This document shows, one piece after another, positions 380 through 5,876 of a DNA stretch of 7,817 bases. Position numbers and translations under genes: made by a program. Origin of the DNA: a virus. Its lineage: Duplodnaviria > Heunggongvirae > Uroviricota > Caudoviricetes. The notes beneath the pieces were generated by a model. That model worked only from the letters and a program-made list of their open reading frames with translations, ran no database searches and was not told the origin of the DNA. Position 1 is the first letter of the stretch. Each line of letters opens with the position of its first letter. The stretch lies in the IMG/VR virus record IMGVR_UViG_2541047945_000007, one strand, 5' to 3'.

Positions 380-2487
380 GTTTACCAGAGGGATTTGTTC
401 TGGATGAACAGCCTGATAACTCACAGCTTCCTGATGGCTTTGTGCTTGATGCCCAACCAGAACAGCAGCAATCTCCTTTGGTTTCACCAGAGGAAAATTC
501 CAGACAGGAAAATGTTGTTAATAATGCTAACGGTTTCGACCGTTTTATGTATGGCGTTCTCAGTGGATTGATGGATGTTGGTAAAGGTGTTGGTCTATTT
601 CAGGATATGACACCAGAAGAGCAAGCCGCAATTCAGTCTCTACAGCAGAAGTTAGCGGCAAAACCATCAACCGTACAAGATGTTGGTGAGTTCGTTGGAC
701 AAGCAGCACCATTTGTTAGTGGTGGTGGGATTATTTCTCAGGTTCCGAAAGGGGCGGCAAGGCTGGCTGCCGCCGCAGGGCTTGGTGCTGGAGAAGGGGC
801 TATTGTAGCCAATGGAACAAATAGCGATGTTGCTTCTGGAGCTGCTATTGGCGCTGTGGCTGGCCCTGTAGCAGAGATTGTTGGTCCAGCTCTTGGGAAG
901 ATTGCAGGAAAAATTAAAAATAGTGCCGGAGATATTTATCGCTCATCCGTAGGGATGGGTAGTAAATCATCTAAAGCAACGTTAAAGAAAGCTGCTGGCG
1001 CAATGGACAATAAATTTATCGGCGGGCAACGAGCTATTCAAGATTTCGCCGATGAAGTTAATCCTGATTTTAACGCGATAAATGCTATTCGTGAGCTAGA
1101 ACTGGAAAATTATGCCACTCCAGGCATGATCTCTAATAATCCTGCTGTCAGGGCTCTTGATAATGCAGTGGCAAGTCTCCCTGGAACAGAGATTAGTGAG
1201 GCGCATAAGCGTTTTATTACTGAATTAGGAAGAAAAGCTGATGAAATGATAACTTCATTTGGGGGAAGCCTTGATAAGCAACTGGTTTCTGACAGGCTTG
1301 CAGATAATTTTGATAAAACCATTTCATCATTACAAAATCAGTCAGATAACATCTACAACAAAATTGCCGAAAAGGTTCCTGTAAGAGACCGGATTGAGGC
1401 AACTAATACATTGAATTTTTTAGAGGATTTTGCTGATGATATAGGTGGAATTGATGAATTATCTCCAATAATGAAGCGGACATTGAACCGACTTGATCCA
1501 AACACCTTGCCAACGTATGGGCGTTTAGATCTCGCTAGAAAGCAGGTTGGGCAAGCTATTGGCAAAGGCTCTGGCCCATTCAAGGATGAAGAAACAGGTG
1601 TTCTTAAAAAGTTATATGCGGCTATAACAGATGACCAACAGGCTGTCGCAGAAAAATATGGCGCAGGGGAGTTATGGACGCTTGGTAAGGAGTTGGTAAA
1701 AACACGAAAATCCATTGAAGATGATGCCGTAACCGTTTTGGGTAGAAAACTTCAGCAATCAGCAATTCCAAAAGTTGAAAGTGCCGTTGTTAATATGGCA
1801 AAAGGAAACGGTGGTGACTTTAGGCAATTAATGAAGTCAATTCCAAAGGATATGCGGCAGGAAGTTGCGCTCACCTCAATGAATAAAGCATTTACCAGCT
1901 ATGCTAAATCACCAGGTCAGCAATTAGGGGTTGATGGATTTGTAAAATGGTATAACGGAATGTCACGCAATGGGGCCAATATGAAGGCTCTCCGTGATGC
2001 TATTGGCACAGATGCATCAAAGCGCCTTGATACGATTTATCAAGCAGCTAAGGCTATGAATAGACTCAATACTGGTAAGCAGTATGCTAGTAGTCTTGTG
2101 GATCAGCAAGTTAATAACTTTCTGAAAGAAAAGGGTAGTCTCGCAAAAATTTATGGAATAGCCTCAAAAGCTGCTGCGGCGGAAGGTATTACAAGCTTAT
2201 CTGGTCTTCCTGGTGTAGGTGCAACAGGGGTGATAACGTCAGCATTGATGTCAGGGAAAACAAGCAGGATAAAGGCTGCTGATGCTCTACTGTCTTCTCC
2301 TGAGTTTAAATCAATGCTATTTCGCCTGCAAAACGCACCTGTAGACAGAGCAGAAGTGAGACGCGTAATAGAAAGGAAACTGATGCAATCTGGGGCATTT
2401 AAGAGATGGGAGAAAACCTTATCAACAGATGAAGCAAAAACCATTGCCCGCACGGGGATTATTACATGGCTCGCTAGTGACAGTTAG
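364..2487 (+). CDS. Internal virion / DNA ejection protein (707 aa); P22 gene 16-like by position
   Basis: 2124-nt ORF; SD AGGAA at 353..357, 6 nt before ATG 364. N-terminal acidic tandem peptide repeat (LPEGFVLDEQP / LPDGFVLDAQP), a long Gly/Ala-rich hydrophobic segment (about aa 107-184), then a long predicted alpha-helical region. It lies immediately upstream of the immI region, as gene 16 does in P22. Functional assignment is from synteny and composition, not recognised sequence identity. Confidence 0.8.
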   Translation: MATNVGLPEGFVLDEQPDNSQLPDGFVLDAQPEQQQSPLVSPEENSRQENVVNNANGFDRFMYGVLSGLMDVGKGVGLFQDMTPEEQAAIQSLQQKLAAKPSTVQDVGEFVGQAAPFVSGGGIISQVPKGAARLAAAAGLGAGEGAIVANGTNSDVASGAAIGAVAGPVAEIVGPALGKIAGKIKNSAGDIYRSSVGMGSKSSKATLKKAAGAMDNKFIGGQRAIQDFADEVNPDFNAINAIRELELENYATPGMISNNPAVRALDNAVASLPGTEISEAHKRFITELGRKADEMITSFGGSLDKQLVSDRLADNFDKTISSLQNQSDNIYNKIAEKVPVRDRIEATNTLNFLEDFADDIGGIDELSPIMKRTLNRLDPNTLPTYGRLDLARKQVGQAIGKGSGPFKDEETGVLKKLYAAITDDQQAVAEKYGAGELWTLGKELVKTRKSIEDDAVTVLGRKLQQSAIPKVESAVVNMAKGNGGDFRQLMKSIPKDMRQEVALTSMNKAFTSYAKSPGQQLGVDGFVKWYNGMSRNGANMKALRDAIGTDASKRLDTIYQAAKAMNRLNTGKQYASSLVDQQVNNFLKEKGSLAKIYGIASKAAAAEGITSLSGLPGVGATGVITSALMSGKTSRIKAADALLSSPEFKSMLFRLQNAPVDRAEVRRVIERKLMQSGAFKRWEKTLSTDEAKTIARTGIITWLASDS

Positions 2488-2774
2488 TCAACTTTGGTTA
2501 TTTTGCCTTCTTTTTCTTGATGAACTTTGCATCCATCATCTTTTGATAGCCAAACTAAAAACTTTAAAACCTTAAACACAAGTACGGCTACTGCAATGAA
2601 AGCACCAATTGCAATTATTGCAAGCGAAATTATTTGCATTGGTGCTTTTAATGCAGGGAAAATAGTGTAAATGATCGCGAAAACAGTAATTATGAGGAAC
2701 CATCGCTTCACACCAACCTCCTTAGTTTTGTGCAGGATACCAGATGGTTTGGAGTGAGATAAAGGTTTGTCCAC
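2484..2774 (-). CDS. Small hypothetical membrane protein (96 aa from a GTG start; possible shorter form from an internal ATG)
   Basis: Minus-strand ORF with two strongly hydrophobic stretches (WFLIITVFAIIYTIFPAL and IISLAIIAIGAFIAVAVLVFKVL). Co-oriented with, and 64 bp downstream of, the PIN gene. GTG start with no clear SD and a T-rich coding strand mean the ORF could partly be a composition artefact. Its stop overlaps the convergent 707-aa gene stop. Confidence 0.4.
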   Translation of the reverse strand: MDKPLSHSKPSGILHKTKEVGVKRWFLIITVFAIIYTIFPALKAPMQIISLAIIAIGAFIAVAVLVFKVLKFLVWLSKDDGCKVHQEKEGKITKVD

Positions 2775-2838: not shown

Positions 2839-3387
2839 TTAGTGTAATCTCTGATCGTCTGAATCGTGTAAGAACTCCATGAGACTTTGAACCGGAATTG
2901 GTTCTATTGATGATAATGTGAACACAGGAATATTGAGACTTTTGCAACGCTCAAACACTCCCTTATCATGAGTCCATACCTCGTCAGCATTAATTGCTCT
3001 TGCAATTGCTATTATTTGTCTGTCAAACTTAATTTTGTTTGCTGTACCTTCTGTGCTAATTTTCCTTAATTCTTTTAATGTTGGTATCGATGCGCATTCA
3101 ATAGCAGCCAACTCATCAAATGATACAGTTTCGAAGCACGATAACGATTTGATAACATTCAGTTTTTCTTGTTGGTAATCTTTATGGATTCCAACTAAAA
3201 ACTCCGCCAATACAGGAGTTGGAACGATGATTGTCCCGTTCTTGTTATCTATTCGATCAACAAGAGCTTCTGCTCTTCTTTTGGCATCTGGAATCTCAGA
3301 ACCAAGTATAGGGTCAGATAATCTATAATCGTGTTCTATATCTGATAGTAGGTATACCAGAATATTGGTATCTAAAATTACTCGCAA
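2839..3387 (-). CDS. PIN-domain nuclease, VapC-like (182 aa)
   Basis: N-terminus MRVILDTNILVY is the canonical PIN start. The four conserved acidic positions are present in the expected motifs: D6 (ILDTN), E62 (PVLAEF), D122 (KFDRQIIAIA) and D141 (WTHDKGVFER, matching the VapC T-x-x-D...FER C-terminal motif). Start is TTG at 3387..3385 preceded by a good SD (GAGGAA, 7-nt spacer); there is no in-frame ATG. The start overlaps the upstream gene's stop by 10 nt, indicating translational coupling. Confidence 0.8.
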   Translation of the reverse strand: MRVILDTNILVYLLSDIEHDYRLSDPILGSEIPDAKRRAEALVDRIDNKNGTIIVPTPVLAEFLVGIHKDYQQEKLNVIKSLSCFETVSFDELAAIECASIPTLKELRKISTEGTANKIKFDRQIIAIARAINADEVWTHDKGVFERCKSLNIPVFTLSSIEPIPVQSLMEFLHDSDDQRLH

Positions 3388-4097
3388 TTTATCTTCCTCA
3401 GAGTCCTAAGGATTGAATCAACATCGCGTTCCTCGGACCACTGATCTCCAGGAACTTGCTTGATAGCATTAATAGCATCCTTGAGTGATGATTTTTTGAG
3501 CAATACAAATGAAGTTATTTTTAGTTTCTTTAGCTCCCATTTGTTGTTCTTTTTTTCCCAGCACCCATCTCCTTTAACCCTAATATATTTGAATAGATGG
3601 GACCCAAGAGCTGCCGCCAAATCAGGGGTTGCCTCGCACTTGAATGTTTCACCGTTGGCTCCCTCAATACGCACAGGTATTGAGTTGTCTTTTCCGCCAA
3701 CACTGTATAGCCTTCCTTGAACTTCTGACGTTTTTGTTATGAGTAAAGGGATTGGCTCCTTTTTTACTCGCGGGAATGCGATAATGGTTGAGTGGTTTCG
3801 TCCGAGTAGTTTCGCTGAAAAACCATCATGCTCCAGTAAATTAACAATTTTTTGATACGCGGGTGATTTCTCTTTGGCTGAGAGAGAGGCCCTTGCTATG
3901 ACAGCGTTATAACAAATATCATTATCGACCCATGCATTTAAGTCAGCCGATCCTTCACTTACACAGTCGAAGTGAACAGAATCTGCAGAACCGTATAGAT
4001 CTACGAGAGCAGACATATACTTGACCAACTTAGCCATTGACAGCTGGCCAGGGGTGGTTCCGTCAAGTTTTAATGTGAGTCCATTGCTTTTTTTCAT
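3378..4097 (-). CDS. Hypothetical protein (239 aa), upstream partner of the PIN nuclease; no recognisable domain
   Basis: 720-nt minus-strand ORF starting 49 bp downstream of the mnt stop; AT-rich like the PIN gene; ends ...LRKINCE* with its TAA inside the PIN start region. No Walker, HTH or other motif I can identify. The SD is weak (GTGATGACAA then ATG). Confidence 0.7.
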   Translation of the reverse strand: MKKSNGLTLKLDGTTPGQLSMAKLVKYMSALVDLYGSADSVHFDCVSEGSADLNAWVDNDICYNAVIARASLSAKEKSPAYQKIVNLLEHDGFSAKLLGRNHSTIIAFPRVKKEPIPLLITKTSEVQGRLYSVGGKDNSIPVRIEGANGETFKCEATPDLAAALGSHLFKYIRVKGDGCWEKKNNKWELKKLKITSFVLLKKSSLKDAINAIKQVPGDQWSEERDVDSILRTLRKINCE

Positions 4098-4146: not shown

Positions 4147-4401
4147 CTATAACTTACTTTTGCTATAAATATTTTTCAGCGTTTCAAAGACCATCTTCTT
4201 AACAACGTCAGATTGCTCATCCGCGACTCGCTCAGCTTCGTCTCGATAGCCTACAATTGATGATGGCTTTGAGAGAGCATCCTGAACGATTTGTAATAAC
4301 TCAGAGTTCATTGACCTTCCGTTAGCCTCTGCTCTTAATTTCAATTTTTCTCTTACTTCCAAAGGCATACGGAAGTTAAAGTGCGGATCGTCTCTAGCCA
4401 T
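4147..4401 (-). CDS. mnt: Mnt repressor (ribbon-helix-helix), maintenance-of-lysogeny repressor of the immI region
   Basis: Translation MARDDPHFNFRMPLEVREKLKLRAEANGRSMNSELLQIVQDALSKPS... is nearly identical to P22 Mnt as I recall it. Divergent from arc, with the P22-type operators between them. Confidence 0.93.
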   Translation of the reverse strand: MARDDPHFNFRMPLEVREKLKLRAEANGRSMNSELLQIVQDALSKPSSIVGYRDEAERVADEQSDVVKKMVFETLKNIYSKSKL

Positions 4402-4423: not shown

Positions 4424-4452
4424 TTGACATGATAGAAGCACTCTACTATATT
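4424..4452 (+). promoter_or_regulatory. Pant-like sigma70 promoter (-35 TTGACA 4424..4429, 17-bp spacer, -10 TATATT 4447..4452)
   Basis: Consensus -35, 17-nt spacer and near-consensus -10 read directly from the sequence; location and arrangement match P22 Pant. Confidence 0.7.
4429..4449. promoter_or_regulatory. Arc operator (Oarc): ATGATAGAAGCACTCTACTAT
   Basis: The 21-bp sequence matches the P22 arc operator as I remember it from the Arc-operator structural literature, with TAGA/TCTA half-sites; it lies in the Pant spacer and overlaps the Pmnt -10. Confidence 0.7.
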
Positions 4453-4491: not shown

Positions 4492-4650
4492 ATGAAAGGA
4501 ATGAGCAAAATGCCGCAGTTCAATTTGCGGTGGCCTAAAGAAGTATTGGATTTGGTGCGCAAGGTAGCTGAAGAGAACGGGCGATCTGTTAACTCTGAGA
4601 TTTATAAGCGAGTGATGGACAGCCTGAAGAGAGAGGGGATAACGGTATGA
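4492..4650 (+). CDS. arc: Arc repressor (ribbon-helix-helix), 52 aa
   Basis: [52 protein letters not shown] is near-identical to P22 Arc as I recall it. SD GAGG 7 nt upstream of ATG 4492. The longer ORF-track start at 4429 is rejected because it would cover the promoter and operators. Confidence 0.93.
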   Translation: MKGMSKMPQFNLRWPKEVLDLVRKVAEENGRSVNSEIYKRVMDSLKREGITV

Positions 4651-4868
4651 AGTTTATTGAGGTTGATGAGATTGGCTATGAGAATGCACTTGGTAGAGGT
4701 AAATCTTTAGTTAACGTTAATGGCATTGAGTCGATAAGGAGCGGTGAATTTACGGAGATCAGAATGATGTCAGGTGGAATCATTCCTTGCCGTGATTCAG
4801 TAGAGTCAATCAAAGCAAGAATGAGTGGTCAGTGGCTTTATAACTACAGTGACTTACAAAAACAGTGA
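4647..4868 (+). CDS. Hypothetical protein (73 aa) inserted between arc and ant
   Basis: ATG overlaps the arc stop (ATGA at 4647..4650); strong SD GAGAGGGG at 4628..4635. Nothing of this size lies between arc and ant in P22 as I recall it. No recognisable motif. Confidence 0.55.
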
Positions 4869-4930
4869 AGCCCCAACTGCGGGAACAGTCAGGGCTTCGG
4901 TTGTCAGTAAATCCGTGGAGAAAAACCAAC
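4857..4930 (-). ncRNA. Possible sar-like small antisense RNA covering the ant ribosome-binding site
   Basis: Minus-strand candidate promoter inside the ant start (-10 TATACT at 4942..4937, weak -35 TGTTCA 16 bp upstream) would start transcription near 4930, antisense to the ant SD (4917..4920). A minus-strand intrinsic-terminator-like hairpin (outer stem 4867..4873 with 4892..4898, inner stem 4876..4879 with 4886..4889) is followed on the minus strand by ACTGTTTTTG. The implied length of about 70 nt is comparable to P22 sar. This is inference only. Confidence 0.3.
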
Positions 4931-5833
4931 ATGAATAGTATAGCAATTTTAGAAGCAGTGAACACCTCTTACGTGCCTTTCAATGGTCAGCAAATTATCA
5001 CCGCCATGGCTGCCGGAGTTGCATATGTTGCGATGAAGCCAATCGTTGAAAACCTTGGAATGAGCTGGTCAACGCAGCAAACAAAACTCATGAAGCAGAT
5101 TAGCAAATTCAACTGTGTTCATATGAACATGGTTGCCGCTGATGGTAAGCTTCGTAAGCTACTCTGCCTTCCTTTGAAGAAGTTAAATGGATGGCTGTTC
5201 AGCATCAACCCTGAGAAAGTTCGTGCTGACATCCGCGATAAACTGATTCAGTACCAGGAAGAATGCTTTACTGTGCTGCATGACTACTGGACGAAGGGAA
5301 AGGCAGAAAATGCACGTAAGAAAACATCTGTTGATGACAGGACTCCGCTTCGTGATGCTGTAAATATGCTAGTCAGCAAAAAGCATCTAATGTACCCAGA
5401 AGCTTATGCAATGATTCATCAGCGTTTCAATGTGGAAAGTATTGAAGAGCTTGATGCATCTCAGATACCGCAAGCTGTAGAGTACATCCACAGGGTAGTG
5501 CTTGAAGGTGAGTTCATCGGCAAACAAGAGAAGAAAACCAACGAGCTTTCTGCAAAAGAAGCAAACAGCCTTGTATGGTTATGGGATTATGCCAACCGCT
5601 CACAGGCATTATTCCGCGAACTGTATCCGGCGCTAAAACAAATTCAATCGAACTATTCCGGCAGATGTCATGACTGCGGTTATGAGTTCTCCCGTATTAT
5701 CGATATGGCGAGAGATGTTTTAATCAACCATACACGAGATGTTGATATTAATGAGCCAGACGGACCAACGAATCTTTCCGCATGGATGAGACTTAAGAAT
5801 AAAGAATTACCTCCTTCAGTACATAACTACTGA
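4931..5833 (+). CDS. ant: Antirepressor Ant (300 aa from ATG 4931; the ORF track's GTG at 4865 is a less likely start)
   Basis: N-terminus [24 protein letters not shown]... matches the P22 antirepressor as I recall it; GGAG at 4917..4920 precedes ATG 4931; the position downstream of arc matches P22. The extension from 4865 would span the hairpin and overlap the upstream ORF. Confidence 0.88.
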
Positions 5834-5851
5834 CAGATAACCAACGCAACG

Positions 5852-5876
5852 ACCCAGCTTAGGCTGGGTTTTTTTA
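5852..5876 (+). terminator. Rho-independent terminator after ant
   Basis: Stem ACCCAGC (5852..5858) pairs with GCTGGGT (5863..5869), 4-nt loop TTAG, followed by a run of six T (5870..5875); it starts 19 nt after the ant stop. Confidence 0.8.

Follow-up and report, generated by a model that had tools for sequence, protein, structure and literature searches.

ORF73, a small accessory gene at a polymorphic arc-sar junction in the immI region of a P22-like prophage remnant

ORF73 in the Pant operon

The DNA analysed here, a stretch of 7,817 nucleotides from the IMG/VR virus record IMGVR_UViG_2541047945_000007 (hereafter the window), comprises the immI region of a P22-like (Lederbergvirus) element. 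Between the repressor gene arc and the antirepressor gene ant it carries a small open reading frame (ORF) of 73 codons, ORF73, the subject of this work (Table 1). The ATG of ORF73 shares bases with the arc stop codon TGA (4648–4650), which gives an ATGA overlap, and a Shine-Dalgarno (SD) sequence, GAGGGG (4633–4638), is placed in the arc tail 8 nt 5′ of the start codon. ORF73 is translationally coupled to arc via this overlap and the SD sequence. The promoter scan of the region around ORF73 displayed Pant and Pmnt as the only promoter-like sites and none between Pant and ORF73. Likewise, the plus-strand terminator scan revealed no terminator between arc and the end of ant, and none directly after ORF73. 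The arc, ORF73 and ant genes are part of one transcript, the Pant operon. As ORF73 has neither a promoter nor a terminator of its own, it relies on Pant for transcription and on arc for coupled translation, and falls outside the classic definition of a moron as a self-contained unit.

At its 3′ end ORF73 is interlocked with sar, the antisense RNA complementary to the ant leader and ribosome binding site. The ORF73 stop codon TGA (4866–4868) constitutes the first three bases of TGAAGCCCC, with which the stem of the sar terminator starts, and the codons Q71, K72 and Q73 together with the stop codon are the complement of the terminator T-tract encoded on the minus strand. An earlier note on this DNA, made from the sequence alone, had let the ORF end just before the ant leader. 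The stop codon does lie 62 nt short of the ant ATG, but the final 5 nt of ORF73 fall within sar, so that the gene does not stop ahead of the leader. The further claim of that note, an extra gene relative to P22 that is coupled to arc and lies inside the Pant operon 5′ of the sar/ant leader, was borne out by the ATGA overlap, the GAGGGG sequence and the comparison with P22.

In P22 and epsilon34, arc directly adjoins sar/ant and ORF73 is absent, as the earlier note had stated for P22. A five-way alignment displayed ORF73 as a clean indel against both phages. Its left edge is located in the last arc codons, following KKEG in P22 (with RIGA before the stop codon; the P22 protein ends in ESFKKEGRIGA) and KREG in the window (with ITV before the stop codon), while its right edge lies exactly at TGAAGCCCC. 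P22 and epsilon34 share the sar/ant leader of the window in identical form but lack ORF73, indicating that ORF73 is dispensable for the switch.

Table 1. Features of the window with positions, strand and supporting evidence.
Feature	Position	Strand	Evidence or remark
DNA-transfer gene	ends 2487		707-aa ORF 364–2487
Small predicted membrane protein gene	2484–2774	-	PHROG 7294, function unassigned in database
PIN-domain gene	2839–3387	-	Pfam PIN E 4e-10; weak VapC-like NCBIfam matches; PHROG 21691
239-aa protein gene	3378–4097	-	PHROG 19868; Pfam search without match
mnt repressor gene	4147–4401	-	Pfam Arc E 5.7e-27; Repressor_Mnt E 4.8e-13
Pant promoter, TTGACA-17-TATATT	4424–4452	+	promoter scan, 11/12 matches; overlaps arc/mnt operators
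Pmnt promoter	4457–4429	-	divergent from, and overlapping, Pant
arc gene, 52 aa, first cistron of Pant operon	4492–4650	+	Pfam Arc E 1.7e-27
Left boundary of slot	4617–4650	+	last ~10 arc codons, including SD sequence and ATGA
ORF73	4647–4868	+	73-aa protein; 222 nt; start ATG 4647–4649
sar intrinsic terminator, right boundary of slot	4857–4898	-	stem 4898–4867, T-tract 4866–4857; terminator scan
sar antisense RNA	4930–4864	-	Rfam RF00262, full length 1–68, 87.7 bits (gathering score 43), E 4.7e-18
ant antirepressor gene, 300 aa, last cistron	4931–5833	+	P22_AR_N E 2.8e-45; P22_AR_C E 2.3e-28
Terminator-like hairpin after ant	5851–5870, with T-run to 5880	+	terminator scan
Tailspike gene	starts 6012

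ORF73 is a genuine protein-coding gene under purifying selection. Intact copies were found in 22/22 loci collected from phages, IMG/VR contigs and E. coli, including the plaque-forming phages Emek and 611R6. The most informative relative is a homologue (L022) on a 1.1-kb Logan contig with an amino acid identity of 60–69%. The gene order on this contig is mnt, arc, ORF and sar terminator; the ORF overlaps arc by GTGA, and the position of its stop codon is unchanged. Comparison of ORF73 with L022 resulted in 1.1–1.3 synonymous (dS) and 0.22–0.25 nonsynonymous (dN) substitutions per site and a dN/dS ratio of 0.17–0.23. The earlier note had reckoned with two observations that would speak against a new gene. 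The first, a frame that is disrupted or unconserved among relatives, did not apply, given 22/22 intact copies and a dN/dS of about 0.2. The second, annotation of the same gene in relatives, applies weakly: ORF73 is already annotated in Salmonella phage Emek (orf73, YP_006560572), in Escherichia phage vB_EcoP-611R6 and in RefSeq (WP_021572780), in each case as a hypothetical protein to which no function is attached. It also matches the PHROG 11805 profile over its whole length (residues 1–73 versus profile 1–73; E 4.5e-52, 175 bits), a family with unassigned function.

Among complete E. coli genomes ORF73 was detected in 51/5426, corresponding to about 15% of the 344 genomes carrying the sar/ant leader. 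Only 3 phage records contain the gene; a tblastn search of 50,697 phage records retrieved Emek and 611R6 only, and a scan of species-representative genomes revealed no relative of ORF73. A further HMMER match among 1.84 billion representatives (P0009; 541 aa, 8 stretches) was rejected as spurious, being a low-complexity tandem repeat that matches only via GQWSYSY. An RNA element in place of a gene was rejected as well, since Rfam finds only sar and the substitution pattern is protein-like.

Altered copies were seen too. In P0008 (45 aa, 9 contigs) residues 34–61 are deleted in-frame between the Ser-Gly dipeptides S32-G33 and S60-G61. P0007, a truncated copy, is joined to the peptide NRPGNPGD, with which a minus-strand ORF (206–487) also ends; as this ORF enters the end of an IS3-family insertion sequence (IS) at the left edge of the window, truncation by IS insertion is suggested. 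The reading frame of P0004 (90 aa) continues into the sar region.

The arc-sar junction and its surroundings

IMG/VR was scanned for the sar terminator, and the upstream content was classified in 112 usable immI loci among the matches listed, to which all locus counts for the junction refer. In 60 of these arc abuts the terminator, and in 52 a small ORF intervenes. The intervening ORFs, termed cargos here, represent at least eight families of unrelated small ORFs, at least seven of them alternatives to ORF73. Proteins resembling the ClpX zinc finger are encoded in 22 loci and form three subfamilies. A 57-aa protein (PHROG 17642), also present in phage phiv205-1, occupies 12 loci. Seven loci encode an 89-aa transmembrane coiled-coil protein and six carry ORF73; a zinc-ribbon protein of 74 aa and an FlbD-like protein of 80 aa account for three and two loci, respectively. 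PADLOC and NCBIfam searches with ORF73 and the other cargos remained without matches.

The architecture of the junction is the same for every cargo. A common arc tail provides the SD sequence, start and stop codons overlap by 4 nt (ATGA or GTGA), and the reading frame ends with the TGA that opens TGAAGCCCC. The A-rich stretch encoding the sar terminator T-tract precedes this TGA in each case. On the right side, TGAAGCCCC is conserved in all loci. On the left side, a nearly identical arc tail was found 5′ of every cargo family in 45 loci, while the tail DSLKREG[IV]xV was seen in none of the loci among the matches listed in which arc directly adjoins sar. As unrelated cargos share the arc tail, the tail is better explained as a shared SD sequence, start site and recombination site.

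The partners of the cargos vary. ORF73 was found with at least three Arc N-terminal types and with at least five antirepressors (P22 Ant, a KilA-N type and three others), and only the last ~10 arc codons, ORF73 itself and the sar terminator are constant across its loci. Cargos in general pair freely with Arc types and antirepressor types. Such free pairing would be expected from an exchange of cassettes through recombination within the two short conserved flanks. Like phage morons and other accessory genes, ORF73 is present in some and absent from other collinear relatives. With at least eight unrelated cargos in the same place and at least three Arc and five antirepressor types as neighbours of ORF73, the earlier proposal of an accessory gene rather than a core component of the switch is supported.

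The C-termini of the cargos are rich in Lys, Gln or Ser (LQKQ, KKSKQ, VEKR, GQKS, EVKS) and end at one common TGA. As the sar T-tract is encoded opposite the last cargo codons, an RNA element constrains the C-termini of unrelated proteins. Several cargo-free loci use the same stop codon: in phage Kapi1 (L024) and in loci whose arc tails end in LIRSLKS or KGNLAKS, arc itself stops on the TGAAGCCCC TGA. In P22-type loci the arc stop codon is located 4 nt upstream of it.

The commonest cargo is a free-standing protein with a CxxC...CxxC arrangement, which comprises ~67 aa in L034, L044 and L060, 60 aa in L073 and L103, and 63 aa in L050. One CxxC subfamily matches the Pfam profile of the ClpX N-terminal C4 zinc finger (zf-C4_ClpX) with an E-value of 4.1e-11 and 43 bits (cut-off 27). 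A phage look-alike of the ClpX zinc finger that is made along with an antirepressor could interfere with adaptor or substrate recognition by ClpXP. The 80-aa FlbD-like cargo (loci L064 and L134) matches Pfam FlbD with an E-value of 1.7e-4 and bears the NCBI name 'flagellar FlbD family protein' in Salmonella. Alignment of this cargo with the ORF73 family by hhalign was not significant (probability 2.9%). Together with ORF73, the match points to two FlbD-like lineages in one slot.

In P22 and epsilon34, the annotated Pant and Oarc align with the Pant site of the window, and the annotated ant terminator of both phages lies at the place of the hairpin after ant. The window is 100% identical to part of the chromosome of E. 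coli LC-1302-2020 (NZ_CP091756.1, 3062764–3070147). In that chromosome it represents the degraded remnant of a P22-like prophage, located between appA and torT and flanked by IS3-family and IS2 elements. Positions 1 to ~234 are the end of the IS3-family element, which truncates the DNA-transfer gene; the remaining ORF is therefore annotated as a partial pseudogene. IS2 sits past the tailspike gene. Between gene 16 and mnt, the PIN-domain gene and the gene for the 239-aa protein overlap as a pair. Neither product was matched by PADLOC; conceivably, the two genes form a toxin-antitoxin-like or defence module that the prophage expresses. The membrane protein ORF, next to the end of the DNA-transfer gene, takes the position where P22 has sieA, and where Sf6 and HK620 have other small genes.

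Predicted fold and possible role of ORF73

The structure of ORF73 was modelled by AlphaFold2 on the basis of a shallow 7-sequence alignment. The model reached a mean predicted local distance difference test (pLDDT) score of 79.6, with values of about 90 for residues 21–60 and of 51–56 for the last 13 residues. The predicted topology consists of strands 2–8 and 18–23, a 3-10 turn (24–26), strands 27–32, 36–40 and 45–48, and a helix (52–59). An 11-aa insertion in L022 maps to the low-confidence loop between β1 and β2. The motif GQW.Y.Y.DL in the tail is invariant even in this divergent homologue, and its conservation suggests a binding motif. When the model was compared with the BFVD viral models using Foldseek, many small phage proteins annotated as FlbD were retrieved with template modelling (TM) scores of 0.6–0.7 and a best E-value of 6.9e-4. 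On the strength of the model, ORF73 appears SwrD/FlbD-RemA-like in fold, and we file it in neither family. FAIM1, the sole match of a sequence search against the PDB (E 0.1), was treated as chance. The earlier statement that the sequence cannot be assigned to any family thus stands only in part. No Pfam or NCBIfam match exceeded its threshold, but the fold and a weak profile match place ORF73 with SwrD/FlbD-RemA-like proteins, and it belongs to PHROG 11805.

In P22, Pant fires at once on DNA entry, Arc shuts Pant off within minutes, and Mnt holds it off in lysogens. By analogy, ORF73 protein would appear alongside Arc and Ant in a brief immediate-early burst, and the gene would be silent in stable lysogens. 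Any small ORF entering the slot would gain the same immediate-early, self-limiting and lysogen-silent expression. According to the epsilon34 paper, late-operon transcripts read through the immI region, so some late expression of ORF73 is possible as well. Residues ~2–60 are predicted to take the SwrD/FlbD-RemA fold and may build hexameric or octameric rings via strands shared between subunits; the conserved aromatic tail GQW.Y.Y.DL would be free for partner binding. Within the first minutes after infection, a ring of this kind might bind a protein of the host or of a rival phage, the proposed outcome being counter-defence, host takeover or inter-phage competition. ORF73 would thus act outside the immunity switch itself. 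Its target could be a defence system, the exclusion system of some resident prophage or a process of the host.

We lean, by a narrow measure, towards ORF73 being an accessory gene in a recombination-bounded slot of the Pant operon that serves as an early effector on a host or rival-phage target. This interpretation builds on the exchange of ORF73 for unrelated cargos, its lack of a fixed Arc or antirepressor partner, purifying selection, and an oligomer-prone fold with a conserved tail. The broader statement that ORF73 is an accessory effector outside the switch is fairly probable. Within it, an anti-defence or anti-exclusion function would be our first choice, though a tentative one; an effector of host physiology of the P1 Icd type is a somewhat weaker candidate, and any other function ranks last. 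A more specific scenario, which we consider conceivable but doubtful, would make the arc-sar junction a dedicated slot bounded by homologous-recombination sites whose cargos are early effectors for counter-defence, takeover or competition, with ORF73 as a ring-forming protein of SwrD fold that uses its aromatic tail to block a host or rival-prophage protein within minutes of infection.

Several observations weigh against an early effector. The copy in the window, residing in an IS-flanked remnant, is probably silent. Annotated homologues give no function, and PADLOC, NCBIfam and Pfam returned nothing above threshold; in the case of Pfam FlbD (PF06289), residues 18–59 aligned to profile positions 10–51 with 12.7 bits, below the gathering threshold of 24.7 (E 0.096). 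The Foldseek search of the PDB was not significant, with RemA chains at E-values of 1 or higher. Moreover, the family is very narrow and offers little to compare: searches of 5.8 billion proteins gave 8 clusters, and those of 1.84 billion representatives 2 real matches. Finally, some copies are decayed (a 45-aa in-frame deletion variant, an IS-truncated copy and a read-through variant), which shows the gene to be dispensable in prophages.

Among the alternatives, the one that survives best is a modulator of the immI circuit. ORF73 would then either assist or oppose Arc, Mnt or Ant, or bind DNA in the manner of RemA/LytTR regulators and control Pant, Pmnt or a different phage promoter. We regard this alternative as rather unlikely. 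A partner of the switch proteins is hard to reconcile with the variety of Arc types and of unrelated antirepressors next to ORF73, and zinc fingers and a membrane protein are among the unrelated cargos that the same slot and arc tail also house. Furthermore, the switch of P22 and epsilon34 runs without ORF73. A DNA-binding role receives no help from the protein itself, which lacks the RemA-type insertion with Arg51 and Arg53 and counts 10 acidic against 9 basic residues, making it slightly acidic.

ORF73 might instead be a decaying or selfish passenger without current function for the phage. Its rarity fits such a passenger (6/112 immI regions among the matches listed, 51/344 sar-bearing E. 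coli genomes and 3 phage records), as do the decayed variants and the location of the window copy in a prophage remnant. In contrast, the dN/dS of about 0.2 holds across a divergent pair, all 22 collected loci including those of plaque-forming Emek and 611R6 are intact, and the geometry of start site and stop codon is conserved. We therefore consider a passenger improbable.

A translated spacer, which would tune ant expression through terminating ribosomes or through sar pairing on the ant leader and whose amino acid sequence would matter little, is still harder to defend. It would resemble P1 icd in that ant expression there needs translation of icd. The position of the cargo stop codons, exactly at the first bases of the sar terminator stem and nearly matched by the P22 arc stop, would suit a spacer, and P1 icd is annotated as 'apparently required for expression of ant'. 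The T-tract of the sar terminator has to be preserved, however, and this explains why the stop position is fixed. Coupling is unnecessary for ant, which has its own leader and SD sequence, identical to epsilon34, 62 nt downstream. Purifying selection acts on the amino acids (dN/dS ~0.2 with dS >1), the model is confidently folded and no variation was seen in the C-terminal motif. A type II toxin-antitoxin-like pair of arc and ORF73 is the least probable explanation: the layout is that of such modules, as the ribbon-helix-helix (RHH) gene is overlapped over 4 nt by the small gene behind it, and Arc weakly matches FitA-like and TraY RHH profiles, but the 52-aa Arc consists of the RHH domain only without a C-terminal toxin-binding extension, one Arc tail is common to eight unrelated cargos, Mnt represses the operon in P22 lysogens so that no addiction module results, Pfam, NCBIfam and PADLOC searches gave no match to a toxin family, and in-frame-deleted and truncated copies of ORF73 coexist with arc.

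As a regulatory circuit, the immI region of P22 has entered the textbooks, and variation of the 'ant moron' around it is already known. ORF73 is an uncharacterised accessory gene among the already known ant moron genes of P22-like phages; the newer result is the defined polymorphic arc-sar slot and the list of its occupants. Literature searches brought up no description of either ORF73 or a defined arc-sar slot. One precise position of the Pant operon acts as a swap site where small genes inherit a ribosome binding site, a stop position and, to judge from the timing in P22, very early and self-extinguishing expression. Should ORF73 prove to have no phenotype, it would be merely another hypothetical phage gene. 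The slot nevertheless yields a short list of candidate early effectors comprising ORF73, the free-standing ClpX zinc finger-like protein and others. Emek and vB_EcoP-611R6 are cultivable phages and allow direct study of ORF73 against defence systems, resident prophages and host physiology. If the model is correct, ORF73 would also add a phage branch to the little-understood SwrD/FlbD-RemA fold.

Comparison with known systems

Whole-gene variation around mnt, arc and ant has been described as the 'ant moron' of P22-like phages (Villafane et al. 2008, PMC2629481). In contrast to the present analysis, that study describes no defined slot between arc and sar.

SwrD, a member of the FlbD family, forms hexameric rings and displays the topology β1-β2, 3-10 turn, β3-5 and C-terminal helix; it is structurally related to RemA and LytTR (2026 preprint, PMC13232269). 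The same order of elements followed by a low-confidence tail is predicted for ORF73. Residues conserved in SwrD are N15-xxx-I/L19, E20, E23 and P26-D27-T28 (PMC13232269). Using the offset of the Pfam alignment, N23, I27, E28 and T36 of ORF73 align with SwrD N15, I19, E20 and T28, and none of the four varies within the ORF73 family. Three positions differ and are not conserved, E23 being replaced by R31 and P26-D27 by E34-F35. The two proteins are further distinguished by genetic context and by their tails. While SwrD is encoded in a flagellar operon, ORF73 lies between arc and ant of the immI operon, and the ORF73 tail is conserved and aromatic whereas that of SwrD is variable and charged. Escherichia is without SwrD according to the preprint (PMC13232269).

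RemA (DUF370), a biofilm regulator from Geobacillus/Bacillus (PDB 7bme/7bm2/7p1w), is an octameric DNA-wrapping ring whose core fold is similar to the ORF73 model. Its DNA-binding residues Arg51 and Arg53 are positioned on a helical insertion between β3 and β4 (PMC13232269). In the ORF73 model, β3 and β4 are linked by three residues only and the helical insertion is missing, as it is in SwrD.

The closest counterpart in gene arrangement is Icd of phage P1, a 73-aa cell-division inhibitor that targets FtsZ (PMC11897509). Like ORF73, icd is a 222-nt cistron directly upstream of an antirepressor gene in an operon named immI that is controlled by an antisense RNA. With the order c4, icd, ant1 in P1 and arc, ORF73, sar, ant in the window, the analogy is positional only. 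Homology was considered and rejected, as the two proteins share no similarity (hhalign probability 0.1%, E 0.52), and the predicted 'bow-tie' fold of Icd (PMC11897509) differs from the ORF73 model. The coupling differs as well: translation of ant1 needs icd, which overlaps it, whereas ORF73 overlaps arc and is separated by 62 nt from ant with its own SD sequence. Being host-directed, Icd nevertheless sets the precedent that a cistron placed in this way can encode a host-directed effector.

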